The notes under the pieces: generated by a model | Seen by the model: the letters and a program-made list of their open reading frames with translations, nothing else | Told to the model about the DNA's origin: nothing | The model's database searches: none | In this document: piece after piece, positions 43,063 through 59,170 of the stretch | How the letters are laid out: each line of letters starts with the position of its first letter | How positions within the stretch are numbered: the stretch's first letter is position 1 | Program-made: the position numbers and the translations under genes | NCBI GenBank assembly: GCA_018696595.1 | Contig: JABHQW010000008.1 | Coordinates: forward strand, 32,001 to 96,000 | DNA from: Candidatus Woesearchaeota archaeon | Lineage (GTDB): Archaea; Nanobdellota; Nanobdellia; Woesearchaeales; GW2011-AR9 | Length of the DNA stretch: 64,000 bases | Direction of reading: 5' to 3'

Positions 43063-44198
43063 AAATACTATTTATTTGTGAGAATTACTTGCCCCATTAT
43101 GGGGGTGCCGAAGTTGTTTTCAAGAATCTTGCAGAATCTTATGCCATTAAAGGTCATAACGTTGCATTACTAACTCACCAAATTAAAGGAACAAAAAAAA
43201 GAGAAGAAATGGGGGCAGTTAAGGTTATCAGAGTCCCCTCATTTAACTCCAGATATATTTTTAGTTTTTCTGCTATTCTTAAGGCAATTAAATTAGCTAA
43301 ACATTGTGATGTAATCCAAACAACTACTTTTAATGGAACTTTTCCTGCTTGGATAGCTGCCAAAGTTTGCCGCAAACCAATAGTAATCACTGTACATGAA
43401 GTTTGGGTTAATAAATGGAGAAAAGTGACTAGTTTTCCCCGCTGGAAATGCTTCATTCATGATTTATTAGAAAGAGCAATTTATTTGTTACCATATGACC
43501 AATATGTTTGTGTTTCCAATGCAACAAAAAAAGACTTGCTTAAATTAGGAATAAATGAAAATAAAGTAAAAACAATCTATAATGGATTAGATTATAATTT
43601 CTGGAACAAAAATAATTTTAGTGACAAAAAGGTTCAAGAGATTAAGGAGCAACTCAATCTTAAAAAGAAAGTAGTTTATTACGCTAGTGGAAGACCCGGA
43701 GAATCAAAAGGTTTTGAAACTTTCATTAAAGCAATCCCTTTAATAAAGAGTAAAGTTCCAAATTCTTTTTTCTTATTAGCTTTGGGGTCTGTTGAAAAAT
43801 ACAAAAGAAAACATTTAGAATTACTGGCCTTAATAAAAAAGTTAAGAATTGAAAAAGAGATAAAAGTAATGAATTCTGTGCCATATGAAGAATTAGGACA
43901 TTATCTCAAAGCAGCCAATTATGTGGTGGTTCCTTCATTGGCGGAAGGATTTGGTTACACTACTGTTGAAGCAGTAGCAATGGAGAAACCAGTAATTGTT
44001 AGTAATGCGGGCTCACTTCCCGAAGTGGTTAGTGGTAAACACCTCATCTTTAAAAAAGGAAGCCCCATTGATTTAGCAGAGAAAGCGATACAAACAAATC
44101 AAGGCCAATACGAAAAAAGTAAAATGAAAAAGTTTTTATGGCAAAATAGTGTTCAAAGCTATTTGAGAGTTTATGAAAGATTGCTTAACCGTTTCTGA
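43059..44198 (+). CDS. GT4 glycosyltransferase
   Basis: YLPHYGGAE, TVHE, VVPSLAEGFGYTTVEA, GSLPEV. Confidence 0.9.
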   Translation: MKILFICENYLPHYGGAEVVFKNLAESYAIKGHNVALLTHQIKGTKKREEMGAVKVIRVPSFNSRYIFSFSAILKAIKLAKHCDVIQTTTFNGTFPAWIAAKVCRKPIVITVHEVWVNKWRKVTSFPRWKCFIHDLLERAIYLLPYDQYVCVSNATKKDLLKLGINENKVKTIYNGLDYNFWNKNNFSDKKVQEIKEQLNLKKKVVYYASGRPGESKGFETFIKAIPLIKSKVPNSFFLLALGSVEKYKRKHLELLALIKKLRIEKEIKVMNSVPYEELGHYLKAANYVVVPSLAEGFGYTTVEAVAMEKPVIVSNAGSLPEVVSGKHLIFKKGSPIDLAEKAIQTNQGQYEKSKMKKFLWQNSVQSYLRVYERLLNRF

Positions 44199-46192
44199 AT
44201 TAATGGTTTCCACCACCATTCGTTATCCCTATACCAAGAAATAGTTTTATCCAAACCTTCCTCGAAGCTGATTTGTGGTCTCCAACCAAGCGCATAAAGT
44301 TTATCAACATTAACACTATACCTTTTATCATTGAATGGTCGGTCTCTTACAAAGGTAATATAAGAATCATCTTTTCCCACCTTACTGATAATTAATTTTG
44401 TTAGTTCCAAGTTGGAGATTTCTTCATGGGTCCCAATGTTATAAGTTTCACCCACTATGCCACGTTCAAAAACAACATCTAATGCTGAACAAAAGTCTTC
44501 AACATGAATATAAGTTCTAATATTTTTGCCGTCACCATGTAAAGGAACTTTTTGATCCTGTAAAAGTTGAGTTATAAAACAAGGAATTATTTTTTCTGGA
44601 AACTGGTGTGAACCATAATTATTATTACCCCTAACAATAATAATTGGTAAGTTGTATGCCGTACAATACCCTTTAACAATCATCTCTGCAGCTGCTTTTG
44701 AAGCAGAGTAAGGATTCGTTGGATTTAACTTATCATCTTCTTTAAAACTGCCTTCTAAAATATCCCCATAAACTTCATCAGTAGAAACATGGATAATTCT
44801 CTTTATGTTACATTGGCGAGCCACTTCCATTAAAACATGTGTCCCATAAGTATTAGATTGAGTAAATATTAGTGAACTTTCAAAAGAATTGTCAACATGA
44901 CTCTCGGCAGCTAAATGAATTAAACAATCAACACCTTGTAATAAATGAGCCAAAAAGTTAAAATCACAAATATCCCCCCGTACAAAACTATAATTATCTT
45001 TATTATCAAGATCCTTTAAGCTATCTAAATTTCCGGCATATGTTAACTTATCAAAATTAATAAAATTGTGTTGTGGGTACTTGTTAACCATATAACGAAT
45101 AAAATTACTTCCAATAAAACCAGCCCCACCAGTTATAACAATCTTCATTTTATTTTTTATTTTGTTTCCTAATTCATTTTTAAAACCATCAATCATTTGT
45201 CCTTCACCATCCAAAGAATTATTCTTTTTAATATTATCAAAACAAGCATTTTTATTATTGTGATTAATATATTTATTTTTTAATCTTCCAATTCCTTCTT
45301 CTAAAAATATTTTTGGAGACCACCCGGTGATAGTTTTAATTTTTGTTATATCCATAACACAACTATCTAATTCAAACAACTTTTCTTTGTAAGCTAGCTC
45401 TTCAAATACAATGTTACTATTACTTTCACAAATAGAAATTATTTGTTTAGCAACATCCCTCATAATAACTCCTTCCCCAGAACCAACATTAAATACTCCC
45501 GTTGATTTTAAATCAATAAGTCTTAGGAAAAGATTAGTTAAATCATCAATGTAAAGAAAATCTTTAAAATCATTTCCATCACCAAAGACATTAATATCTT
45601 GATTACTAATGGCTTTTTTTACGAAAATAGGAATTACATTGTTTGGTTCTCCCCGACAATCAAACCCATAAACACTAGAAACTCTTAATGAAATTATTTT
45701 CAAACCATAGATCTTATGATAATAATTGATATACTGTTCCGCAGTTTGTTTGTGTATTCCATAAAGTGAAAAAGGATTTTGAAAAAAATCCTCGTTAATC
45801 TTTTTATCTAAAGCCCCAGTTTTTCCAAATTGTGTCCGCGAACCAATAAATATATGATAACAATTTGGATTAACATTTTTGATTGCTTCTAAAACATTTA
45901 ATTCCCCTAAGCAATTAACTTTTAAACTATTGATAGCAATTTTATCTTCAACATGTTTATCTATTACTGCAGCTAAATTTATAACAACATCATGATCTTT
46001 AATTAATCTCTCAACTAATAAGTAATCGGTGATAGACCCACTCACAAAATTAACTTTTTTAAAAAAAGCACAAGATTGAATTTTATTCTCATTATTAGCT
46101 AGAATAGTAATATGGTTTTCTTGTTCCAAAAGTGTTTTCACTAAGTTTAACCCAATAAAACCATTCCCTCCAATTATTAAAATTCTTTTCAT
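44171..46192 (-). CDS. rfbB: Tandem SDR fusion: NAD-dependent epimerase + dTDP-glucose 4,6-dehydratase
   Basis: Domain 1: IGGNGFIG..YGIHK. Domain 2 from M349 (nt 45148): TGGAGFIG, DKLTYAGN, AAESHVD, STDEVYG, NPYSASK, NNYG..FPEKIIP. Confidence 0.88.
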   Translation of the reverse strand: MKRILIIGGNGFIGLNLVKTLLEQENHITILANNENKIQSCAFFKKVNFVSGSITDYLLVERLIKDHDVVINLAAVIDKHVEDKIAINSLKVNCLGELNVLEAIKNVNPNCYHIFIGSRTQFGKTGALDKKINEDFFQNPFSLYGIHKQTAEQYINYYHKIYGLKIISLRVSSVYGFDCRGEPNNVIPIFVKKAISNQDINVFGDGNDFKDFLYIDDLTNLFLRLIDLKSTGVFNVGSGEGVIMRDVAKQIISICESNSNIVFEELAYKEKLFELDSCVMDITKIKTITGWSPKIFLEEGIGRLKNKYINHNNKNACFDNIKKNNSLDGEGQMIDGFKNELGNKIKNKMKIVITGGAGFIGSNFIRYMVNKYPQHNFINFDKLTYAGNLDSLKDLDNKDNYSFVRGDICDFNFLAHLLQGVDCLIHLAAESHVDNSFESSLIFTQSNTYGTHVLMEVARQCNIKRIIHVSTDEVYGDILEGSFKEDDKLNPTNPYSASKAAAEMIVKGYCTAYNLPIIIVRGNNNYGSHQFPEKIIPCFITQLLQDQKVPLHGDGKNIRTYIHVEDFCSALDVVFERGIVGETYNIGTHEEISNLELTKLIISKVGKDDSYITFVRDRPFNDKRYSVNVDKLYALGWRPQISFEEGLDKTISWYRDNEWWWKPLIQKRLSNLS

Positions 46193-46226: not shown

Positions 46227-47876
46227 TTATTTTTTATCTCTTTTTGCTATTATGGCATTAATTCTTTTATAATCTTCAAATGTATGAATTTCAGTCCAAC
46301 CTTTATTGACTTCTAAACAATCAACTTTGTGTCCTTGCTCAATTAACTTTTGAATAGCATAAGTAAAATCTTTGTTTTTCATTTCTTCATAATTCTCAGA
46401 ATAGATTTGTTTTAGTAACTCGGTACCTTGTCCCGAAAACATTGCCATGCCAATAAATTCAAAATTTGCTTCATCCGGATCTAAATGTGAACCAATTTTA
46501 ACAATTTCATTATGGTCATCAAAAGTTAATGATCTTTCACCTAGATAGGGGTCTCTTTTACCAACAACAAGATCTAACTTTTTATTATACCGATTAGCAT
46601 TTAATTTATATGAAGAATCAATCACTAAAGTAATATCTCCTTCTTTCTTAATTAATCTTTCAACAATGTCCTTATCAAAAAGAAGGTCAGAATAAAGCAT
46701 TAGAATTTTTCCGTTCATTTTATCTTTAGCAGTCATGATTGAATGTAACGCTTTGGTGTTTTCATATTCAGAGTTATGATACTTATTAATTGCAGGAAGA
46801 TTAATTTTTTCCCCACAATAGCCAGTAACTACACTAATATCATTAATCTTAAGAGAATTAAGAATCTCAATATTTCTTTGAATAATTGGTTTGCCATTAA
46901 TATCAAGTAAACAAAGAGGGGTATCTTTTAGGTATACATCATTGAGCTTAGGATCTATTGGCTTACCAGCGGCAGGAATAATAACTTTAATCTCTTCAAA
47001 GTCTCCTTTAACATATTTCGTTTCATGGTCCTTCATTTCAAAAGTACCTTGAAGTTCAAACAATTCTTTTACTGGAATCAATTTTTCTGAGATTGTATGA
47101 ATCCCTCCTTGTTCTTTTATTTCCTTAAGTGTTTCTTTAATAGAAGTTACTGCAGATCTAATCACATGATTAGCATAAATAACCATCTTAACTTTAGGGT
47201 GATTTTTTATTTTATCCTCAGTCAAAGTGTAATAATTTGTAGGAACAATGACGATTGGAATATCTTCTTTCCACTCTTCAATAAACCTAATAACTTCTGC
47301 AGGATCACTTTGTTTAGAATGAATCATAATTGCATCTGCCCCTGCCTCAACATAAGCTTTGGCTCTTTTTTTTGCTTCTTCATGACCCCATCCAGCAATG
47401 AGGGCTTCAACACGAGCAATAACCATGAAATCATCATCTCGTTGAGCATTTTTAGCAGCCATAATCTTTCCAGAGAACTCAGCAATAGATGCTAATTCTT
47501 GTTTCCCTCCAACTAAAAGGCTATTCTGTTTTGGAAACTTTTTATCTTCCATAATTACTCCTGCAATTCCGGCTGCCTCAAATTTTTGAACCATCCGAAT
47601 TACGTTAATAGAATTACCATAACCTTGATCAACATCAACAACAACGGGAATCGTAACTGCATCATTCATAGAAACTGCCGCATCTAAATAGTCTGTCATA
47701 GTGAGAATATTAGCATCTGGAACAGCATGTGACGCCGAAACTTCTAAAGAAGAAGCCCAAACTCCTTCAAAGCCTGCTTTCTCGATTAATTTCGCAGTCA
47801 AACCATTATGAGCCCCAACTAAACGAAAGAACCCAGGAAGATTAAATAATTCACGCAATTTTTTTGATTTTTCCAT
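46227..47876 (-). CDS. aepX: Phosphoenolpyruvate mutase fused to C-terminal NTP-transferase-like domain
   Basis: GAHNGLTA, WASSL, VDVDQGYG, PepM signature EDKKFPKQNS, ARVEALIAG; C-term VIIPAAG..PLCLLDINGKPII. Confidence 0.96.
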   Translation of the reverse strand: MEKSKKLRELFNLPGFFRLVGAHNGLTAKLIEKAGFEGVWASSLEVSASHAVPDANILTMTDYLDAAVSMNDAVTIPVVVDVDQGYGNSINVIRMVQKFEAAGIAGVIMEDKKFPKQNSLLVGGKQELASIAEFSGKIMAAKNAQRDDDFMVIARVEALIAGWGHEEAKKRAKAYVEAGADAIMIHSKQSDPAEVIRFIEEWKEDIPIVIVPTNYYTLTEDKIKNHPKVKMVIYANHVIRSAVTSIKETLKEIKEQGGIHTISEKLIPVKELFELQGTFEMKDHETKYVKGDFEEIKVIIPAAGKPIDPKLNDVYLKDTPLCLLDINGKPIIQRNIEILNSLKINDISVVTGYCGEKINLPAINKYHNSEYENTKALHSIMTAKDKMNGKILMLYSDLLFDKDIVERLIKKEGDITLVIDSSYKLNANRYNKKLDLVVGKRDPYLGERSLTFDDHNEIVKIGSHLDPDEANFEFIGMAMFSGQGTELLKQIYSENYEEMKNKDFTYAIQKLIEQGHKVDCLEVNKGWTEIHTFEDYKRINAIIAKRDKK

Positions 47877-49103: not shown

Positions 49104-49186
49104 TGCACAAGAATTATAAATGAATTATAACCATTAACTACCTATTAATTTAAAAAAATTAACGAGAATGGATTAATTAATTGAAA

Positions 49187-50308
49187 ATGATAAACCCAGC
49201 ACAATTTTACGAACTTTTACAAACTAAAGAACTAACTATGTTTACCGGGGTGCCTGATTCTACCTTAAAACAATTATGTGCTTACATCACAGATCATGTG
49301 CCTCCAGAAAGAAATATTATAACTGCAAATGAAGGTAATGCAATTGGTTTAGCAAGTGGGTATTACTTAAGCACAAACAACCCTGCCATCGTTTACATGC
49401 AAAATTCGGGATTGGGAAATTGTGTTAATCCCTTAACTTCTTTAACTGATGAAGATGTTTATTCTATTCCAATGTTATTGATTATCGGCTGGAGAGGCGA
49501 ACCAGGAAAAAAAGATGAACCGCAACATGTAAGAATGGGACAAATAACTCTGGAGATGTTGGATGTTCTAAAAATACCTTATTCTATTATTCCTGATACA
49601 ATTGAAGAAACAGAAATAGAGGTTAGTAAAGCTGTTGTTCATATGAACAATCATAAAACACCTTATGCTCTTGTTGTAAGAAAAGGAACTTTCACGGAAC
49701 ATAAATTACAAAATACAAAAACAACAAATTATCCCCTTAATCGCGAACAAGCAATAAGGACCCTTGTTCCGTTATTAGAAGAAGATGCTATTATAGTTTC
49801 AACCACTGGAAAAACATCAAGAGAATTATTTGAATTTAGAGAAGAACTTCAACAAGGACACGAAAGAGATTTCTTAACTGTTGGTTCAATGGGCCATTCA
49901 TCTTCAATTACTTTAGGAGTCGCCTTACAAAAACCAAAAAAGAAAGTATACTGTTTTGATGGTGATGGTGCGCTAATAATGCACATGGGTGCCTTATCAA
50001 CAATTGGCCAGTTACAACCAAAGAATCTGTGTCATATTGTATTGAATAATTTTGCACATGATTCGGTCGGGGGACAACCAACTGCTGCAGACAATATTGA
50101 TATTCCGCAAGTTGCTCAAGCTAACGGATATAAGAAAGTGTTCTCGGCTCAAAGCGAAGAAGAGATTAGAGCTAAAATAAAAGAAATCCAACAACTAGAA
50201 GGGCCAACATTATTAGAAATTAAAGTAAACAAAGGGGCAAGAAAAGAATTAGGAAGACCCACTACAACACCAAAAGAGAACAAATCTGAATTGATGAAGT
50301 ATTTATAA
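49187..50308 (+). CDS. aepY: Phosphonopyruvate decarboxylase
   Basis: FTGVPDS, ANEGNAIGLASG, YMQNSGLGN, GWRGEPG..DEPQH, TVGSMGH, DGDGALIMHMG, NNFAHDSVGGQPT. Confidence 0.96.
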   Translation: MINPAQFYELLQTKELTMFTGVPDSTLKQLCAYITDHVPPERNIITANEGNAIGLASGYYLSTNNPAIVYMQNSGLGNCVNPLTSLTDEDVYSIPMLLIIGWRGEPGKKDEPQHVRMGQITLEMLDVLKIPYSIIPDTIEETEIEVSKAVVHMNNHKTPYALVVRKGTFTEHKLQNTKTTNYPLNREQAIRTLVPLLEEDAIIVSTTGKTSRELFEFREELQQGHERDFLTVGSMGHSSSITLGVALQKPKKKVYCFDGDGALIMHMGALSTIGQLQPKNLCHIVLNNFAHDSVGGQPTAADNIDIPQVAQANGYKKVFSAQSEEEIRAKIKEIQQLEGPTLLEIKVNKGARKELGRPTTTPKENKSELMKYL

Positions 50309-50390: not shown

Positions 50391-51431
50391 TTAATTATCT
50401 TCCCAATCCTTTTTTGGAATTCTCCAGTCTTTTCCATAAACAAATTCGAGATGTTTTTCAGGATTAAAAGGGGCATGATACTCTTTCCCATAAAAATCTA
50501 TTTTTCCTAATTGACTATAATGTTCTCTTAAAAACTTCCACTCAATGATTCTACAATCTTTTAGTGAAACTTTTTCCCATAATAATTGAATTAATTTCCC
50601 TTTATAAGGAATAAAAGTAAATATAAATATCACTACATTAAAAAAACCTTTTAAAAACCAAGAAGGGATTCTTGAATCTTGTAGCTCTCCACCATGCCTT
50701 CTTATTAAAGTAATAAATGTATTTATTATCATCCTTCGCTTTTTTATGCCATCTCTAGCTGCCAACAACAACCAACCCAATAACGCAGTAATTTTTGTTT
50801 TTTTCTTTAAACTTTTTGTTTGAAAAAAAACTAAATAGTCCTTTTTTTTCCTAAGAATATGAATATTAATATGTAATGAACCTTTCTTTCTAAATGTAAT
50901 CATTCCACGATCAGCAAACCAACATACTTCAAACCCCTGATCTGATAGCTTATTAAGAGCATCTAGTAATGTATTTATATTAATTTCTTCCCTCACCATA
51001 CTAGTATCAATATCACAATCCCAAGATAATATTTTCTTATCCCTAACTGCTCCAAGAAGGGTACCACAATCTAATCTCCAAATTAAGTTATGTTCTTCAA
51101 ATACCTCTTTTATTTCTTCTAACGCTTTCACTGTTCCTTTTTCATGTGGGTTTTTTTCTTTTGAAGAAATTGTGGGCGTGTTCTTTCTAGAAATAACTTT
51201 TTCATTTAACTCCATTTGTATTTTTTGATTAATACTTTTATCTTTTATATTTCCAATTTTAGTTAAGTGTTTCCTAAAAGGACCGAGATTTGTCCTAAAT
51301 ATTCTACAATTTAACCAAAGGTATCCTTTCTCTTTTGTAATAGTATACACATTTTCTCTGAAAGGGTCTAATGGTGGTGTAAACCGAGTTGTTTTTACTA
51401 TATCGCCAACTTTAAAAATTGTTTTTGTCAT
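50391..51431 (-). CDS. LicD-family phosphotransferase with N-terminal extension
   Basis: LDCGTLLGAVRDKKILSWDCDID; C-term HLEFVYGKDWRIP; start moved to ATG 51431. Confidence 0.85.
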   Translation of the reverse strand: MTKTIFKVGDIVKTTRFTPPLDPFRENVYTITKEKGYLWLNCRIFRTNLGPFRKHLTKIGNIKDKSINQKIQMELNEKVISRKNTPTISSKEKNPHEKGTVKALEEIKEVFEEHNLIWRLDCGTLLGAVRDKKILSWDCDIDTSMVREEININTLLDALNKLSDQGFEVCWFADRGMITFRKKGSLHINIHILRKKKDYLVFFQTKSLKKKTKITALLGWLLLAARDGIKKRRMIINTFITLIRRHGGELQDSRIPSWFLKGFFNVVIFIFTFIPYKGKLIQLLWEKVSLKDCRIIEWKFLREHYSQLGKIDFYGKEYHAPFNPEKHLEFVYGKDWRIPKKDWEDN

Positions 51432-51502
51432 TTTCTTTATTATTCTCCACATAGTTAATCAATAAAATCAAAGATTATAATTACTAAGTAATTATAATTA
51501 AA

Positions 51503-53032
51503 TTATGTTTGTTTTATCCCCACAAAACCTATTCTTTCACCATACATCGCTTTTGCCCGAATTGGATCTCTTTTAAGTAACAAATGATTAAGATCAAAGT
51601 TTTGTTTTTCTACCCAACATTCAAACTCTCCTGCACTTTTAAAACCGTCAACAGTTATATGGGAGTTTCTGAAAGTACCACTTTTTTTTACTTCTCCATC
51701 CCACCATAAATTTTCTTTTGTAACTTGTCGATAAAGCTCTGTTCCAGGAAGGGGATTCACAATGGCAACAGAATAACTATCTGCCCCACAACTAGCAGCA
51801 AACTTAATTGTTTCTTCCCTTTCTTCTCTTGTTTCGCCTGGAAAACCAACCATCCAAAAAGTATGAGTATACAACCCGGCATCAATAGCAGTTCTAATTG
51901 TTTGAGGAATAAGTTCTAAATCCAACCTTTTATTGGCCTGATCTAAAGTTTTTTGCACACCACTTTCACATGCTAAAGTGACTTGATAGCAACCCGAATC
52001 TGCCATTTTTTCAAATAATTCCTGATGCTTACCCTGGTGATAATCTACTCTGATTCCATTCGGCGGGCACCAAGGAATATTCAAGGGTTTCATTAGATCA
52101 CATAATTCATTTAATTTTGAAAGGTCAGATGTTAGAGTATCGTCTTCAAACTGAACTTCTTGAATACCATGATTTTCAATAGCGTCTTTTATTTCTGCAA
52201 CAATTTCTTGAGGGCTTCTCCACCTAACTTTTCTTCCCCAAGTAACGGGAGTAGTACAATAAGTACAACGTTCCGGACATCCCCTAGAAGCCATAACATT
52301 CAATACCCTTTTTCTTTCAGTATCTGCATTATGAAATAAACCAACATTAAAGTACCCTTCCATATTCATAAGATGCCTAGCGGGAGAAGGTAAATCTTGG
52401 AGATTAAGTGTTTCTCCAGATAAAGGATTAATTACTATTTTACCTGCTTCGGATGAAGAATTTTCTCTATGAACTAAACCGGGAATCAAACTATAATCAC
52501 CACCAGTTAATAAACAATCAATTAAATGTGCAAATCTCAGTTCACTTTCTCCAACCATTGCAAAATCAATATTTTGATTATCCATGAAAGCCAATTCTTT
52601 TTCTAGATTTGATTCTTGGTTTCTAGGATCATTGGCATAAAGATAATCTGACACACTATTAGTGATATAGTTTCCACCTACAATAACTGGGAGATCTCTT
52701 TTAACCTCTTTTGTAATCCGAGCTAAGGCATGAGAGCCTTGAACAAGATTAGAAAAGAGTACAGAAATCCCAACAATGTCTGGATTAATTTCTGAGATAT
52801 ATTTAGCAATATCAGTATCTGATTCTCCCACAATAACTATTCCCTTCTCCCCGGAGGATTCAGAATGGTGATAGCCTTCTAATGCAGTATCACGAACATA
52901 AACGTCGTGGCCTTCTTTTTCAAGAACTGCCGCCAAATAACCCAAACCCAAAGGAGGTTGTATTCGGTTAACCCCTCCTTCAATGCCCCTGATATTTGGA
53001 GAGAATAACAAAATCCTACTTTTATTTACCAT
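51503..53032 (-). CDS. Cobalamin-binding radical SAM enzyme (class B methyltransferase-like)
   Basis: QPPLGLGYLAAVL, VGIS, GESE, ASRGCPERCTYC (CxxxCxxC), FEDD, GFPGET, PLPGTELY. Confidence 0.9.
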   Translation of the reverse strand: MVNKSRILLFSPNIRGIEGGVNRIQPPLGLGYLAAVLEKEGHDVYVRDTALEGYHHSESSGEKGIVIVGESDTDIAKYISEINPDIVGISVLFSNLVQGSHALARITKEVKRDLPVIVGGNYITNSVSDYLYANDPRNQESNLEKELAFMDNQNIDFAMVGESELRFAHLIDCLLTGGDYSLIPGLVHRENSSSEAGKIVINPLSGETLNLQDLPSPARHLMNMEGYFNVGLFHNADTERKRVLNVMASRGCPERCTYCTTPVTWGRKVRWRSPQEIVAEIKDAIENHGIQEVQFEDDTLTSDLSKLNELCDLMKPLNIPWCPPNGIRVDYHQGKHQELFEKMADSGCYQVTLACESGVQKTLDQANKRLDLELIPQTIRTAIDAGLYTHTFWMVGFPGETREEREETIKFAASCGADSYSVAIVNPLPGTELYRQVTKENLWWDGEVKKSGTFRNSHITVDGFKSAGEFECWVEKQNFDLNHLLLKRDPIRAKAMYGERIGFVGIKQT

Positions 53033-53197
53033 AAGTAATCTTCCTCTAAATCAATATCTAATAATTGTATTTTTTCGCATCAAGGGTCTTTTATAAAAGT
53101 TATGAATATGTAATGCAGTCAAAATCCTTTTATAAAGAACCCTAATGAATTAAATGTGGCCAAATCCACATTAGAATTATAAAAATGAATCGAAGAA

Positions 53198-53213
53198 CCA
53201 TAGAATATATAAA
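53198..53213 (+). promoter_or_regulatory. BRE/TATA of four-domain gene operon
   Basis: CCATAGAATATATAAA, 24 nt before the ATG. Confidence 0.6.
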
Positions 53214-53237
53214 TACTTTAATTTATTTAGTTGTTAA

Positions 53238-56200
53238 ATGTCATTAGCAAAACAGAGGGAATATTTTGGAATTGGAAAAATAGATAAGTTAAAAGAAATA
53301 TTAGCATTAGAACGAGCAAAAAAAGTATTTTTAGTAACCACAAAAAGATCATTCTCATCTTCTAGTGCTAAAGAAAGAATTGCCCCCCAATTAAAAGATT
53401 ACCAGGTCACTATTTTTAACGAATTCTCCCAAAACCCAAAACTAGAAGATATTAAAAGAGGAATAAAGATATTTAAAGAAAGTAATTCCGATTTAATTAT
53501 TGCTATTGGTGGAGGGAGTGTAATTGATATGGCAAAATCAATTAATGTCTTATCTGCCCAAACTTTAGCACCTGAAATATACATCATTGAAAAAGTTCCG
53601 TTTGAAAAGAAAGGTTGCCCATTAGTTGCAATACCAACCACATCAGGAACAGGAAGTGAAGCGACACATTTCGCGGTTTTGTATATTAACAAATCCAAAT
53701 ATTCGTTAGCTCACGAAGAATATATTCTTCCAAATTATGCCATTATCGATCCCGAATTGACATTTAGTTTACCTAAAGCCATTACTGCTACAACTGGTAT
53801 TGATGTTTTAAGCCAAAGCATAGAATCATATTGGTCGGTAAACTCAACTGAAGAAGCAAAGGCTTACGCCCAAGAAGCAATAAAGTTAGTTTTAAAAGAT
53901 CTAAAAACTGCGGTTAATTACCCTTGCAAAGAAGCCAGAGTAGCAATGGCCAAAGCGGCCAATTTATCTGGAAAAGCAATTAACATTGCAAAATCCACGG
54001 CCCCACACGCGATATCATACCCTTTTACTTCATACTTTAATATTCCTCACGGCCATGCAACAGGATTAACCCTTGGCCCAATACTAGTTTTTAATGCCAA
54101 TATTAATGAAACTAATTGTACAGACCCAAGAGGGGCAGAATATGTTAGATTAACTATTAATAAAATAATTTCTTTTTTTGGGTCTACTTGTGCCGCTGAT
54201 ACTTGTAAAAAAATTCAATATTTAATGCGAGATATTGGACTTGAAACAAACATTAAAAGATTAGGGATTGATTCTGAAGAAAAAGTAAATTTAATAATTG
54301 AAAAAGGGTTCAACCCCGATCGAATTAAAAATAACCCCAAAAGAATAGAGCCAGAACAGTTAAGAAAAATTTTAAATGAAATTAGCCAAGAAACAGAAAT
54401 TAAACCAGAAAAAATGGAAACAGTTTATATTGGCATGGTTGCTGATAGCATCCACCACGGCCACATAAATATTATCAGTGAAGCAAGAAAATTGGGAGAT
54501 GTAATTGTGGGATTAGTTACTGATGATGCGGCCCAAAGCTATAAAAGAAGACCAATCTTAAGCTTTAGTGATAGAGCAAGAATTATTAAAAATATCAAAG
54601 GAGTAACAAAAATTGTTCCCCAAAACACATTGGATTATGTCCCAAATATAGAGAAATATAAACCATCAATAATCATGCATGGGGATGATTGGAAAAAAGG
54701 ATCCCAAAGAATTATTAGAGAAAGAGCATTAAATGCAGTTGAAAAGTATGGGGGGAGAATTATAGACCTCCCTTATACTAAAGGCATTTCAACTACAGAA
54801 TTTATAGAAAAAGTTAAATCTTGTTCATTAAATAAAAAAAACACAACCCAAGCAATAATTCTGGCAGCAGGGATGGGTACAAGATTAAGACCACTTACTG
54901 AAGAGACACCAAAATGTTTAATTAAAGTGAACAATAAAACACTATTAGAATATTCACTTGATTGTCTTAAAGAAAATGGAATCCAAGAGGTAATTATTGT
55001 TATTGGTTATCGCGGAGAATTAATTAAACAAAAAATAGGTAATGATTATCACGGCTTAAAAGTAGCATACATTGAAAATTTACGTTTTTCCGAGACTGGA
55101 AGTATGTATTCTTTGTCACTTGCTAAAAAAGAGATTAAAAATGACATCCTGGTTTTAGAATCTGATCTGTTATATGAATCGTCTGCTATTAATACAATAT
55201 TAAATTCAAATCATAGAAATACTATGGTCATCTCTAAATTACTTCATTCTGGAGATGATGTTTACATTTGTACAAATGAAAAAGAAGAAATTATTAATCT
55301 TGGGAAAGAAATATCAGAAGAAGAGAAAAAAAGAGCTAAAGGAGCAATGATCGGAATTTCAAAATATTCTGGTGAATTTCTTGCAGAACTTTTTAAGAAA
55401 GCAGAAGAAGATTATGAAAAGGGGGAAGTCAATTACCATTATGAAGAGTGTGTATTTGCCACCAGTCATGAGAATAACCCGGTTAAAGCTATCTTTTGTC
55501 CTGAACTTCATTGGATTGAAATTGACAATGAAAATGATTTAAAGAAAGCAACAGAAGTAACATACCCCAAGATCAGAAATTTAGAGAATAATAAGCAAAA
55601 AAGTTCAAGTATAAAAAGAAATATCCTTTTAAATCCTGGACCAGCTACTACTACTGACACCGTAAAATATGCACAAATTGTTCCCGACATTTGTCCAAGA
55701 GAAAAAGAATTTGGGGATGTAATGAAATACATTAATAATAATTTAATTGAAATTGCTGGGGGAAATACGGAGGAAGATGTCTGCGTATTATTTGGTGGCT
55801 CTGGAACGGCGGCCATGGATGCTACAATTAATTCTGTTGTACCACCTGATAAAAAAATCTTAGTGATTAATAATGGAGCATATGGGGAAAGAATTGCTAA
55901 GATTGCTCGAGCGTATAGTCTTGGTTGTATTGAACTAAAGTTTGAATGGGATGCTCTACCAGATCTAAAAATAATTGAGGACCAACTAAACGAAAACCCT
56001 GAAATTTCTTGCGTTGCTATGATTCATCATGAAACAACAACGGGACTATTAAATCAGGTTAAAGAAATTGGAGAATTAGTTAAAAATCACAATAAAGTGT
56101 TCATAGTTGACACAATATCTAGTTTCGCAGGGATCCCAATGAATATTAAAGAATTTAATATTGATTTTATGATGTCTACTTCAAACAAGTGTATTCAAGG

Positions 56201-56732
56201 AATGGCAGGGGTTAGTTTTGTTATTTGTAGTAAGAAACAACTTGAAAGAATTAAAGAATACCCACGCCGATCTTTTTATTTAAGCTTATATGACCAATAC
56301 GAATATTTCATTAAAAATTACCAGATGAGGTTTACCCCCCCAGTACAAACATTATATGCTCTTAAAAAAGCAATTGCAGAATTTTTAGAGGAAGGATATG
56401 AAAACCGAGTTGCAAGATATACTCAGAGTTGGAAAGTTCTAAGAGCAGGAGTTCAAGAATTAGGATTTAAGATATTAACTCAACCTGAAAATGAGTCCAA
56501 CCTTTTAATTACTTTACTTAATCCAGAACACCCTAATTTTAATTTTAATATTCTTCATGACAAATTATTTGAAAAAGGATTTACTATTTATCCTGGAAAA
56601 GTGGGAAAAGTTAATTCATTTCGGTTATCTAATATGGGTGCCATTGATGAAAAGGATATTAGCGAATTCTTAGTAACATTTGAAGGTGTATTAAATGAAA
56701 TGGGAACAATTGGACAGCAAAAACCAACATAA
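53238..56732 (+). CDS. Four-domain fusion: Fe-ADH (phosphonoacetaldehyde-reductase-like) + HxGH cytidylyltransferase + LicC/PntC-like NTP transferase + 2-AEP aminotransferase
   Basis: GGGSVIDMAK, PTTSGTGSEAT, HAISYP..IPHGHA | ADSIHHGH, HGDDWK, PYTKGISTT | AIILAAGMGTRLRPLT, EIDNENDL | LLNPGPAT, CPREKEF, GSGTAAM, VDTISS, STSNKCIQG, RFTPP. Confidence 0.93.
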   Translation: MSLAKQREYFGIGKIDKLKEILALERAKKVFLVTTKRSFSSSSAKERIAPQLKDYQVTIFNEFSQNPKLEDIKRGIKIFKESNSDLIIAIGGGSVIDMAKSINVLSAQTLAPEIYIIEKVPFEKKGCPLVAIPTTSGTGSEATHFAVLYINKSKYSLAHEEYILPNYAIIDPELTFSLPKAITATTGIDVLSQSIESYWSVNSTEEAKAYAQEAIKLVLKDLKTAVNYPCKEARVAMAKAANLSGKAINIAKSTAPHAISYPFTSYFNIPHGHATGLTLGPILVFNANINETNCTDPRGAEYVRLTINKIISFFGSTCAADTCKKIQYLMRDIGLETNIKRLGIDSEEKVNLIIEKGFNPDRIKNNPKRIEPEQLRKILNEISQETEIKPEKMETVYIGMVADSIHHGHINIISEARKLGDVIVGLVTDDAAQSYKRRPILSFSDRARIIKNIKGVTKIVPQNTLDYVPNIEKYKPSIIMHGDDWKKGSQRIIRERALNAVEKYGGRIIDLPYTKGISTTEFIEKVKSCSLNKKNTTQAIILAAGMGTRLRPLTEETPKCLIKVNNKTLLEYSLDCLKENGIQEVIIVIGYRGELIKQKIGNDYHGLKVAYIENLRFSETGSMYSLSLAKKEIKNDILVLESDLLYESSAINTILNSNHRNTMVISKLLHSGDDVYICTNEKEEIINLGKEISEEEKKRAKGAMIGISKYSGEFLAELFKKAEEDYEKGEVNYHYEECVFATSHENNPVKAIFCPELHWIEIDNENDLKKATEVTYPKIRNLENNKQKSSSIKRNILLNPGPATTTDTVKYAQIVPDICPREKEFGDVMKYINNNLIEIAGGNTEEDVCVLFGGSGTAAMDATINSVVPPDKKILVINNGAYGERIAKIARAYSLGCIELKFEWDALPDLKIIEDQLNENPEISCVAMIHHETTTGLLNQVKEIGELVKNHNKVFIVDTISSFAGIPMNIKEFNIDFMMSTSNKCIQGMAGVSFVICSKKQLERIKEYPRRSFYLSLYDQYEYFIKNYQMRFTPPVQTLYALKKAIAEFLEEGYENRVARYTQSWKVLRAGVQELGFKILTQPENESNLLITLLNPEHPNFNFNILHDKLFEKGFTIYPGKVGKVNSFRLSNMGAIDEKDISEFLVTFEGVLNEMGTIGQQKPT

Positions 56733-56756
56733 TCAGAACTTAAAAAATTTATAAAA

Positions 56757-57503
56757 ATGATTACTAGAAATCAACAGAAAGAAAAATATGAAACTGATTT
56801 AAGATACCATTCAGATTCGGACAACTTAAATCAAACGTTTGATAACCGCTATTCATTACGTAATAATTGGGGATTATATTTTGAATTAATAAAATTTAAA
56901 GAGATGGTTAAGCTCTTAAATAAAAGTAAAGTTAGGTTAAAGAATAAAAAAATCTTAGATTTAGGTTGTCACCGTGGCTTTACTTCTAACCTTTTAGCAC
57001 AATTAAAAGGATCTTCTGAAAACATTTATGGGGCAGATTTTATCAATTCTTTTGTTGAGCAAGCCCAAGAAATTAATCCTGGTGTTAAATTCTTTCAACA
57101 TGATGTTTATAATGAGCTACCTTTTGAGAACTCTTATTTTGATTTAGTTACATTAATTTACTTGTTTAATGCCCTTCCCTCCCAAGACCAACAAGAAGTT
57201 GTTAAGAATATTTCCAAAAAAATAAAAGTAGGAGGTCATATCTTATTCTTTGACTTGTTTGAATCCAGAATGTCACGAGTAACACAAAGATTAGCTCACC
57301 TTAACAAGAGATATACTCCTTTGCCACATTTTAATGATAAAATTATTAAAAAATTGTTCCCGGACTTTAAGATAATCCAATCTAAAAAAATAATTAATTT
57401 GTTAACTTATCGAACAATTGGGTTTTCGTATGGTTTAGCAGAATTTTTAGATAAAATGTTACCATGCGAGTATTATATCACATTATTAAGAAAAATAAAA
57501 TAA
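56757..57503 (+). CDS. Class I SAM-dependent methyltransferase
   Basis: ILDLGCHRG, GADF, LPFENSYFDLV, GGHILFFD. Confidence 0.85.
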   Translation: MITRNQQKEKYETDLRYHSDSDNLNQTFDNRYSLRNNWGLYFELIKFKEMVKLLNKSKVRLKNKKILDLGCHRGFTSNLLAQLKGSSENIYGADFINSFVEQAQEINPGVKFFQHDVYNELPFENSYFDLVTLIYLFNALPSQDQQEVVKNISKKIKVGGHILFFDLFESRMSRVTQRLAHLNKRYTPLPHFNDKIIKKLFPDFKIIQSKKIINLLTYRTIGFSYGLAEFLDKMLPCEYYITLLRKIK

Positions 57504-57504
57504 A

Positions 57505-58155
57505 ATGGGCGAAAAAAGAATAAAAGAAAATGTGGAATTTTGGGATTGGGTATTCAGATTTGTATCTAAACCAGTCACACACTTTTTTGTTAAGTTCACT
57601 AAGATAACCCCTAACCAAATCACCATATTAAGTTTTATTTTAGGCTTATTAGCCGCGGGACTAATTTTAATGGGAGATTATAATTACTTAGTTGTTGCAG
57701 GCGTCTTAGTATTAATTTTCATGGTCTTAGATAATGTTGACGGGGAGATTGCTAGAATAACTAAGAAAACAAGTAAGTTAGGCCATTGGTTAGATGGAGT
57801 TGTGGGTTTTATTATAAATGAAGCATTAATTTTAGCCATGGCATTAAGTATTGGTAGCCCATTATCTCTATCCGTTGGATTATTAACAATGATTGCTTTT
57901 CCAATGCAATATTTATTAATATTCTTTTACAAAGCAGAGATTGTTAAAGAGAATGCCCCAATTACAATTGGATCTGGAAGCCTAATCAATAAAATAAAGT
58001 ATTTATATGGTTCAACCTTCTTTCAATTTACAGTTGCGATAGGTTGCTTTTTCAATAAGCTACTATGGGTTTTAATCTTCTTTGCAGTCATCGGAAACTT
58101 ATTCTGGATGGGGACATTGTTTGTCCAATATATCAACTTAAAACGAAAGTTTTAA
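57505..58155 (+). CDS. CDP-alcohol phosphotransferase family membrane protein
   Basis: ITPNQITILS, DNVDGEIAR-x8-G-x3-D-x3-G. Confidence 0.85.
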   Translation: MGEKRIKENVEFWDWVFRFVSKPVTHFFVKFTKITPNQITILSFILGLLAAGLILMGDYNYLVVAGVLVLIFMVLDNVDGEIARITKKTSKLGHWLDGVVGFIINEALILAMALSIGSPLSLSVGLLTMIAFPMQYLLIFFYKAEIVKENAPITIGSGSLINKIKYLYGSTFFQFTVAIGCFFNKLLWVLIFFAVIGNLFWMGTLFVQYINLKRKF

Positions 58156-58180: not shown

Positions 58181-59170
58181 ATGGTAAACAATTTGTTGAG
58201 TCATTATAAAGTCTCCCCAAAATTAGAAGTGAAATTAACAGCAAGTTTTCCTTTATCTCGGAGTACAGGAATTCAACAAGCTTATAATTCTCAAGAACCA
58301 GATTGGGACTTATTATTTACGCATTGGGGTAAAGAGATTATATATATTAATCCTAATATCCCCCAATTACAGTGGAGAGAGATATGCTTAGCAACCCATT
58401 GGAATCAATTTGAAGAAGCAGTTAAAAAAAATGATAAATTAGTACTAGATGGGAGAAAAATCGATGGTTTTTCAATTCAAGCTCAACGTAAAGGGGCTTT
58501 AAAAGATTTAAGTTTTTTATCTACTGCAAATTATTGTTTTACTCTTACCGATGATGACCAACATATTTTAATGGGAGTTAGGGGAGGAAGTGATAATGTA
58601 GGACAAGCAGTAACAATGCCATTGGGGGTTGTTTCTTATCCTTCAGAACCTGACCCTAATAATTTAGATCCAATTACGGCTTCAGTTTACTCCGAAGCAA
58701 ATGAAGAAGGGGGCATTTTACCAAATGAATATTCTTCATTAAATTGTATTGGAACCTTGCGACAAGAGCAATGTTCTACACCAGTAAATAATCTTATTTG
58801 GATTGGAAGATTAAAGATTACAGGTGAAGAAATTATAGAGAGACACAAAGTAGCCATTGAATTATATAATAAATTTGGAAATGATTCTGAGAACATATTA
58901 AAGGCACGAATGGAGTTGAGAAAAAGATTTTTATTTAATCCAAGATTTCCAAAAGATGCTTGGGAAAATTCAAGATTAAATTTATTTTCTAATGATCCCG
59001 AGAAAATGGTTGCAGATCTCAGTTATTTAATTGACCAAGGAAAAGAAATTAAACATGGATTATATGGTGCTTTAGCCTTATATATTTTAAACCAACATGG
59101 AGATAAATATTATAGTCAATTAATGAATATACCACAATTTAAAGAAAAGATTCATGATCAAAAATTATAG
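58181..59170 (+). CDS. Hypothetical protein with degenerate Nudix-like segment
   Basis: ILMGVRGG..MPLG..SEANEEGGI resembles a Nudix box. Confidence 0.55.
   Translation: MVNNLLSHYKVSPKLEVKLTASFPLSRSTGIQQAYNSQEPDWDLLFTHWGKEIIYINPNIPQLQWREICLATHWNQFEEAVKKNDKLVLDGRKIDGFSIQAQRKGALKDLSFLSTANYCFTLTDDDQHILMGVRGGSDNVGQAVTMPLGVVSYPSEPDPNNLDPITASVYSEANEEGGILPNEYSSLNCIGTLRQEQCSTPVNNLIWIGRLKITGEEIIERHKVAIELYNKFGNDSENILKARMELRKRFLFNPRFPKDAWENSRLNLFSNDPEKMVADLSYLIDQGKEIKHGLYGALALYILNQHGDKYYSQLMNIPQFKEKIHDQKL

Follow-up and report, generated by a model that had tools for sequence, protein, structure and literature searches.

The locus and its question

Can a single polypeptide carry phosphonoacetaldehyde to two differently activated phosphonates? 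This question is raised by a gene at positions 53238–56732 of a 64,000-nucleotide stretch of a Candidatus Woesearchaeota archaeon genome (GenBank assembly GCA_018696595.1, contig JABHQW010000008.1, positions 32,001 to 96,000 of the forward strand), hereafter called the window. The gene is a single open reading frame on the forward strand, running from ATG to stop and encoding 1164 amino acids (aa) plus the stop. From the N to the C terminus, its product comprises an iron-dependent alcohol dehydrogenase (Fe-ADH), a Fom1-type cytidylyltransferase (CyTase) with an HxGH motif, a nucleotidyltransferase (NTase) of the PntC type and a 2-aminoethylphosphonate (AEP) transaminase (AEPT), all approximately full length and non-overlapping in Pfam. 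Catalytic motifs were present in all four domains. A single frame with these four enzymes had been described in a first-pass annotation made from the letters alone, and it was confirmed with Pfam, NCBIfam and the reading-frame analysis. The domain boundaries given there were also right, with M393 encoded at nucleotide 54414 and the motifs HHGH and GISTT at residues 406–409 and 516–520. The gene and its parts are as follows.

53238..56732, + strand: whole four-domain gene (one open frame; indel-free contigs; exact protein on 20 contigs)
53238..54392, + strand: domain 1 (aa 1–385), group III Fe-ADH, presumed phosphonoacetaldehyde reductase making 2-hydroxyethylphosphonate (HEP) (Pfam, motifs, homologues)
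54393..54413, + strand: linker 1 (aa 386–392), with M393 directly behind it
54414..54827, + strand: domain 2 (aa 393–530), Fom1-type HxGH (PF01467), presumed HEP cytidylyltransferase (5X3D match, motifs, clade context)
54849..55601, + strand: domain 3 (aa 538–788), PntC type (PF00483/PF12804), presumed AEP cytidylyltransferase (Tde1415 alignment, motifs)
55611..56729, + strand: domain 4 (aa 792–1164), predicted 2-aminoethylphosphonate:pyruvate transaminase (AEPT, PhnW/AepZ) (TIGR03301, Protein Data Bank (PDB) matches)

The gene is a genuine fusion, and we consider it reasonably probable that it arose from an AEP operon and an HEP module and that its product would split phosphonoacetaldehyde into the cytidine monophosphate (CMP) derivatives CMP-HEP and CMP-AEP, the substrates and products being predicted from sequence comparison.

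Integrity of the fusion gene

In runs X1, X2 and X6, Logan contigs spanned positions 53000–57000 (to 56884 in X6), and no difference or gap was present. Run X9 came from another study and carried no flag as a possible source; there, one piece (53905–55217) crossed junctions 1 and 2 and a second piece (55290–55838) crossed junction 3, and the two showed no gap and a single G>A change. Stops or frameshifts at the junctions, which the first-pass annotation had named as the point to check, did not appear, as the three junctions were covered without indels in four marine runs from at least three studies. Moreover, DNA of the fusion gene was present in 20 marine or seawater runs belonging to 15 studies, and the identical 1164-aa protein was recorded on 20 contigs, the longest of which measured 496 kb. 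Base composition was even along the gene, with 31–33% GC and 20–24% GC at third codon positions across all four domains, compared with 31.8% GC for the window. Homopolymers were found at each junction, namely A8 at the HxGH/PntC junction 2 (54834–54841) and A6 at junctions 1 and 3, and the A8 tract showed no length variation in the four runs compared. It was concluded that the fusion gene is intact and genuine and is not an assembly artefact.

The junctions also bear on whether the protein is made as one chain. Junction 1 reads ...NEISQETEIKPEK-METVYIG, and relatives of the HxGH domain that are fused to phosphoenolpyruvate (PEP) mutase (PepM) start with M-K-x-V-Y-V-G-M, the initial methionine lying at exactly the place of M393. 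Because of this coincidence, M393 is most simply read as a start codon left over from a CyTase gene that used to stand alone. No ribosome-binding site resembling GGAGG or GGTGA was seen upstream of M393 by eye. Junctions 2 and 3 contained no ATG, GTG or TTG codon; thus, at least the HxGH, PntC and AEPT parts could not be made as separate proteins. From these features we infer that the protein is produced as one chain. No RNA runs were listed over 54200–55900, which tells nothing either way on expression.

Assignment of the reductase and its neighbouring cytidylyltransferase

Domain 1 matched Fe-ADH PF00465 at residues 9–172 (1.5e-42) and ADH_Fe_C PF25137 at residues 183–381 (7.9e-29), both over the full length of the model. 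It carries GGGS at residues 91–94 and the metal ligands D189, Q193, H257 and H271. At position 193 the classical His is replaced by Gln, as in 92 of 97 homologues and in the solved enzyme 6JKO. In related archaea, ADHs adjoining CyTase-PepM genes were 48–54% identical to domain 1, and phosphonopyruvate decarboxylase (Ppd) was also located there in two genomes (G005 and G022). Furthermore, dozens of Ppd-ADH fusions were found in the Candidate Phyla Radiation (CPR) and DPANN, and their ADH halves were 44–52% identical to domain 1. Such fusions of homologues act as a "Rosetta stone" and thus provide strong evidence, by sequence comparison, that the ADH clade of domain 1 acts on phosphonoacetaldehyde.

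Domain 2 matched Pfam CTP_transf_like at residues 403–524 (1.1e-16) and the CyTase domain of Fom1 (PDB 5X3D) with an E value of 1.2e-43 and approximately 57% identity over 133 residues. The motif HGDDW (481–485) lies between HHGH and GISTT, and all 11 invariant columns of an alignment with 18 relatives (alignment A1) were kept. The clade of this domain was then surveyed through its 80 nearest loci (L018–L097), taking one genome per species and scoring the flanks with the proteins of the window; kin among these loci are not fully independent. In 79 of the 80, PepM lay directly downstream on the same strand, fused to the CyTase. This agrees with the earlier statement that an HxGH CyTase is normally fused to the N terminus of PepM, as does the occurrence of PF01467 on 23.6% of PEP mutase (Ppm) enzymes (Rice et al. 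2019, PMC6697681). Domain 2 itself has no such fusion and is placed between the ADH and PntC.

The flanks indicated which product-forming enzyme accompanies this CyTase. Fe-ADH was found within 5.5 kb of the HxGH gene in 70 of the 80 loci. A flank of 5 kb or more was available in both directions at 42 loci, of which all 42 had Fe-ADH and none had AEPT. Only one of the 80 loci (L072, Clostridium uliginosum) had AEPT beside CyTase-PepM, and there it stood in place of the ADH. Since the loci come from many phyla, they do not represent one inherited cluster; CyTase-PepM/Ppd/Fe-ADH (HEP) clusters were observed in Bacteroidota, Marinimicrobia, Gammaproteobacteria, Bacillota, Patescibacteria, Thermoplasmatota and DPANN. 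In addition, three metagenomic CyTase-ADH fusions were found (P0083, P0106 and P0139), all with the CyTase first, and two of the three formed a clade with domain 2 (SH-aLRT 98). HxGH domains fused to AEPT (P0092 and P0018) were 34–37% identical to domain 2 and sat on very long branches.

Assignment of the PntC-AEPT half

Residues 538–1156 aligned end to end with Tde1415 (PDB 6PD1; E value 1e-141), the Treponema denticola protein that makes CMP-AEP and transaminates AEP (Rice et al. 2019, PMC6697681); the first-pass annotation had correctly stated that PntC-AEPT fusions are known. In domain 3, Pfam NTP_transferase and NTP_transf_3 matched from residue 539 to residues 656–657 (NTP_transferase, 3.1e-15), and the GxGTRL signature of NTP binding is present as GMGTRL at residues 545–550. 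By the 6PD1 alignment, E641 and E736 correspond to Glu104 and Glu196 of Tde1415, which contact the amine of AEP and are Asp in LicC. The domain resembled the PntC halves of PntC-AEPT fusions most, with 57–59% identity to those of the closest ones.

Domain 4 matched Pfam Aminotran_5 at residues 821–1081 (2.7e-24) and the NCBIfam model PhnW-AepZ (TIGR03301) at residues 796–1147 with 430.4 bits, compared with an equivalog cut-off of 360.8. The AEPT structures 9KK8, 1M32 and 7E7G in the PDB matched it with E values of 1e-62 to 1e-74. The lysine for pyridoxal phosphate (PLP), K984, lies in STSNK, an S-x-N-K motif that aligned with the motif of Tde1415. The AEPT half was 81–82% identical to those of a metagenome contig (L011) and a genome of the same family (G303).

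Taken together, the loci with 42 of 42 ADHs and no AEPT, the CyTase-ADH fusions and the AEP-amine ligands kept in PntC support the earlier suggestion that each product-forming domain sits beside its own activator.

As a separate observation, the PF12804 NTases in HEP-only clusters (L014, 3923–4606, − strand; L101, 9187–9903, + strand) show His-Gly in the column of PntC Glu104, and AEPT-linked PF12804 NTases mostly have Glu or Asp there. The residue at this position is a possible specificity marker on the strength of only two HEP-cluster sequences.

Rarity of the architecture and comparison with known systems

Among 5.8 billion 90% clusters of 640–2037 aa, a word-indexed search in which the 8000 candidates with the most words in common were scored revealed no other protein that combined three or more of the four domains. 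With HMMER against 1.84 billion 50% representatives, nothing longer than 751 aa was found in the best 150 matches (at least 301 bits), and the top match was a 617-aa PntC-AEPT. The 90% cluster of the fusion protein held only itself and two fragments. Across 441 genomes (the 40 nearest, and 401 of the phylum with two candidates scored per genome), approximately 21 had the ADH (HEP) type and five the AEPT type, and none except the present genome had both. Literature searches on the architecture, on CMP-HEP/CMP-AEP and on phosphonates in DPANN returned nothing beyond Rice 2019 and Li 2022. The four-enzyme arrangement is thus unique in the databases searched, in agreement with the first-pass annotation, to which no such chain was known, and the fusion is limited to one species-level population.

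The ingredients are known, and every pairwise link has a precedent. The pairwise fusions seen elsewhere were PntC-AEPT, CyTase-ADH, ADH-AEPT (P0007, 695 aa, without a CyTase), Ppd-ADH and CyTase-AEPT (P0092); the metagenomic CyTase-ADH, ADH-AEPT, Ppd-ADH and CyTase-AEPT proteins show the same pairwise links as the window gene but hold at most two of the four domains each, and in the CyTase-ADH fusions the order of the two domains is reversed relative to it. Phosphonate-gene fusion is common in these small-genome lineages, and the 1164-aa protein is the most extreme case seen. The undescribed fusions noted in CPR, DPANN and marine metagenomes (including P0018, P0033 and P0047) also comprised a Ppd-ADH set of approximately 750 aa (P0011–P0046), LicD-ADH, AEPT-CyTase-PepM and CyTase-PepM-Ppd. 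AEPT-NTase-rSAM proteins (rSAM, radical S-adenosylmethionine enzyme) of approximately 1100 aa (P0004 and P0005) and an rSAM-AEPT-methyltransferase protein (P0010) were found as well.

Three known systems come closest. Tde1415 (PDB 6PD1/6PD2) resembles the fusion in domain order, in Glu104/Glu196, in GxGTRL and in the PLP lysine; however, it has two domains, and the fusion adds 537 N-terminal residues with Fe-ADH and a second, unrelated cytidylyltransferase. The Streptomyces fosfomycin enzymes Fom1, FomC and Fom3 provide the same trio of activities, namely HxGH CyTase, Fe-ADH and an adjoining B12 radical SAM enzyme, and the Fom1 CyTase forms CMP-HEP (PMC6697681). The Fom1 CyTase is fused to PEP mutase, whereas the window CyTase is fused to the ADH and PntC-AEPT, and the PepM of the window has a PF12804-like domain instead. 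The contexts also differ, being antibiotic synthesis for the Fom system and surface glycosylation for the window cluster, in which Pfam and NCBIfam identified no FomD or epoxidase. Lastly, triple fusions of Ppm with PF12804 and PF01467 (42 proteins, 2.8–2.9% of Ppm enzymes; Rice et al. 2019, PMC6697681) likewise hold both cytidylyltransferase folds in one phosphonate-pathway polypeptide, so two folds per chain are not new. These triple fusions are built on PEP mutase, whereas the window fusion is built on two consumers of phosphonoacetaldehyde and has no mutase.

Neighbouring genes

The genome measures 1.19 Mb in 8 contigs and is 97% complete; its rRNA operon is archaeal, and those relatives of its proteins that have a name belong to Woesearchaeota, Nanoarchaeia or Nanobdellota. 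PepM, Ppd, ADH, HxGH and AEPT occur in one copy each. The fusion gene lies within a surface-glycosylation island with AglB upstream. Its neighbours there are PepM with a C-terminal NTase, a GT4 glycosyltransferase, Ppd, LicD, a B12 radical SAM enzyme and a SAM methyltransferase, and further two CDP-alcohol transferases, a 329-aa protein, a free NTase and a second GT4. The genes most relevant to a phosphonate pathway are listed below.

46227..47876, − strand: PEP mutase with a divergent C-terminal NTase, source of phosphonopyruvate (Pfam PEP_mutase; TIGR02320, 319.8 bits compared with 319.55)
49181..50308, + strand: Ppd, phosphonoacetaldehyde maker (TIGR03297, 507 bits compared with 312.5)
50391..51452, − strand: LicD-family transferase, candidate mover of a CMP-activated head group to glycan (Pfam LicD)
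51503..53032, − strand: B12-binding radical SAM enzyme, in divergent orientation to the fusion gene (Pfam B12-binding and Radical_SAM)
57505..58155, + strand: CDP-alcohol phosphatidyltransferase 1, candidate CMP-phosphonate user (Pfam PF01066)

The PepM at 46227–47876 is the sole PEP mutase of the genome. Its C-terminal NTase has AAGKPIDPKL in place of GxGTRL and a Tyr at the position of PntC Glu104, and this NTase-like domain may bind a ligand other than AEP or may be degenerate. For the radical SAM enzyme, the closest NCBIfam models were the phosphonate P-methyltransferases Sden_1168 (259 bits) and PhpK (106 bits), both scoring under the cut-off. It was 48–49% identical to the rSAMs next to the ADH in two HEP clusters (G018 and G005), compared with 31–33% to AEPT-fused rSAMs, and it is probably a methylase of an activated phosphonate that belongs to the HEP module. 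An AEP-type contig (P0003) carries an rSAM followed by LicD. Homologues of the CDP-alcohol transferase (32–35% identity) end the HEP clusters of G018 and G005.

Two further neighbours were noted. The 329-aa protein (58181–59170, + strand) had no Pfam or NCBIfam match; its nearest ESM Atlas clusters were NUDIX-like and mostly from Nanobdellota, a Nudix-box-like SEANEEGGI was seen by eye, and a homologue with 36% identity lies in the HEP cluster of G018 (L013, 10897–11904). Like FomD, it may act as a CMP-phosphonate hydrolase. The gene at 44171–46192 (− strand), which comes immediately after pepM in the same orientation, encodes a 673-aa protein with two tandem epimerase/dehydratase domains of the short-chain dehydrogenase/reductase (SDR) type.

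Origin of the cluster

The closest relatives of the C-terminal half were two-domain PntC-AEPT proteins in a compact PepM_NT-Ppd-(PntC-AEPT) operon without ADH or HxGH. On the metagenome contig L011, Ppd, AEPT and PepM_NT were 90%, 81% and 73% identical, respectively, to those of the window. Two genomes of the same family carried such a fusion: that of G303 was 72% identical overall (82% in the AEPT half and 59% in the PntC half), and that of G280 was 67% identical overall (75% and 58%, respectively) on a contig that stops within Ppd, so that PepM is not visible. Other members of the family had HEP clusters. In G018 and G005 these comprised HxGH-PepM, ADH, rSAM and CDP-alcohol transferase, together with the 329-aa homologue in G018 and Ppd in G005, and HxGH-PepM and ADH were found in G014, G011 and G022. 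Because family members hold either AEP operons or pure HEP clusters, the window cluster appears to have formed by the merger of an AEP operon and an HEP cluster.

On this comparison, an ancestral PntC-AEPT gene of the Tde1415 kind, situated in a PepM-Ppd-(PntC-AEPT) operon, would have gained a 5′ HEP module consisting of Fe-ADH and the Fom1-type HxGH CyTase. The second PepM would then have been lost, leaving an orphan CyTase between the ADH and PntC. Entry of the PntC domain by recombination with the HEP module was also considered, as identity to P0002 drops sharply at the PntC/AEPT border. PntC halves were 0.6–0.9 times as conserved as AEPT halves in all pairs compared; the step lies within this usual rate difference, no recombination is needed, and this candidate was rejected. 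Two genomes of the same genus (G001 and G002, 81–84% complete) gave no match to the ADH, HxGH or AEPT parts, so the phosphonate island may be young or may differ between closely related genomes.

Proposed pathway

In the pathway proposed here, PepM and Ppd would supply phosphonoacetaldehyde. Domain 1 would reduce part of it to HEP, and domain 2 would convert HEP and cytidine triphosphate (CTP) to CMP-HEP. Domain 4 would transaminate the remaining phosphonoacetaldehyde to AEP, which domain 3 would activate with CTP to CMP-AEP. The B12 radical SAM enzyme probably methylates one of the activated phosphonates in a Fom3-like manner, and LicD and the two CDP-alcohol transferases would place the head groups on lipids or glycans as part of the adjacent AglB glycosylation island. 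The full form of this proposal, with a fork to CMP-HEP and CMP-AEP on one polypeptide and an archaeon whose surface glycans or lipids carry two kinds of phosphonate head group, of which one may be methylated, is plausible but tentative.

Several observations weigh against the two-branch pathway. The ADH scored 176.7 bits with TIGR03405 (PsrA), the sole phosphonate-specific Fe-ADH model, and thus failed its cut-off of 423.7. Domain 1 was 43–44% identical to the ADHs of the CyTase-ADH fusions whose CyTase groups with domain 2, compared with 51–54% to ADHs elsewhere. The CyTase-ADH clade may reflect common release from PepM and not descent, because P0139 sits on a long branch. The cluster has four NTase domains, two beyond those of the fusion, and PF12804 NTases also occur in HEP-only clusters, so the fold does not fix the substrate. 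Finally, a dual output is without precedent, and Li et al. (2022, PMC8942020) treat AEPT and PhpC as competing outcomes in their inventory.

Alternative explanations

The alternative that survives best holds that one branch only matters, the fusion being a recent accident of the cluster merger in which one module is redundant and a single head group is shown. For example, the HxGH domain might accept AEP or a methylated derivative as well, and the ADH might merely detoxify excess aldehyde. The restriction of the architecture to a single species-level population and the missing matches to ADH, HxGH and AEPT in G001 and G002 are consistent with such an accident, and it is common for a cluster to hold several NTases whose respective tasks are unclear (Rice et al. 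2019, PMC6697681). However, the catalytic motifs were kept in all four domains, the same protein stood on 20 contigs with its DNA in runs of 15 studies, and two CDP-alcohol transferases together with LicD are enough for more than one head group. Accordingly, a single working branch was regarded as unlikely.

The reactions of the ADH and AEPT families are both reversible. Thus, the two enzymes could work in series, converting HEP of environmental or recycled origin through phosphonoacetaldehyde to AEP, or the reverse, as a salvage route in which the CyTases activate whichever phosphonate is present. The direct ADH-AEPT fusion without a CyTase (P0007) also fits a series arrangement. However, a complete de novo route of PepM and Ppd is present in the same cluster, and no phosphonate importer was found adjoining the fusion gene by Pfam analysis of the neighbours. 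Moreover, members of the ADH clade form fusions with Ppd in many organisms, suggesting that the ADH reduces fresh aldehyde. Salvage in series is therefore rather improbable.

It is slightly less probable still that two proteins are made, the ADH alone and an HxGH-PntC-AEPT protein from an internal start at M393, in which case the chain of four enzymes would exist in a formal sense only. The position of M393, exactly at the start of the PepM-fused CyTases, is what such a start would require. However, no stop codon precedes M393, so ribosomes coming from 53238 read through, no Shine-Dalgarno-like motif was seen upstream by eye, and junctions 2 and 3 lack any start codon.

An assembly or sequencing artefact, either a chimeric join or an indel in the A8 or A6 tracts that masks a stop, is highly improbable and was rejected on the gap-free contigs of four runs from at least three studies, the uniform composition over the domains and the lack of start codons of their own in the downstream domains.

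Implications

With the fork from phosphonoacetaldehyde to CMP-HEP and CMP-AEP preferred over these alternatives, the fusion bears on several matters in phosphonate biology. Phosphonate clusters very often carry several nucleotidyltransferases, and their roles are an open question (Rice et al. 2019, PMC6697681). Here, two unrelated CyTase folds stand in one chain, each by a different product-forming enzyme, and this gives a clear, testable prediction of which domain activates which phosphonate. If the prediction is true, the protein would offer, in one natural chain, a way to test how substrates are divided between PF01467 and PF12804 cytidylyltransferases. The fusion also contradicts the published exclusivity of AEPT and PhpC-type reductase (Li et al. 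2022, PMC8942020), and it would represent the first dual-branch phosphonate tailoring pathway. As one gene that would take phosphonoacetaldehyde to two CMP-phosphonates, it could serve as a biocatalyst.

For the organisms themselves, the locus suggests that marine DPANN-type archaea with genomes of approximately 1.2 Mb invest in C–P surface chemistry. The CyTase-PepM/Fe-ADH (HEP) cluster is widespread in marine as well as other phyla, a distribution that is relevant to where the HEP esters of marine organic matter come from; if the proposed pathway is true, this lineage would be a concrete archaeal source of those esters.

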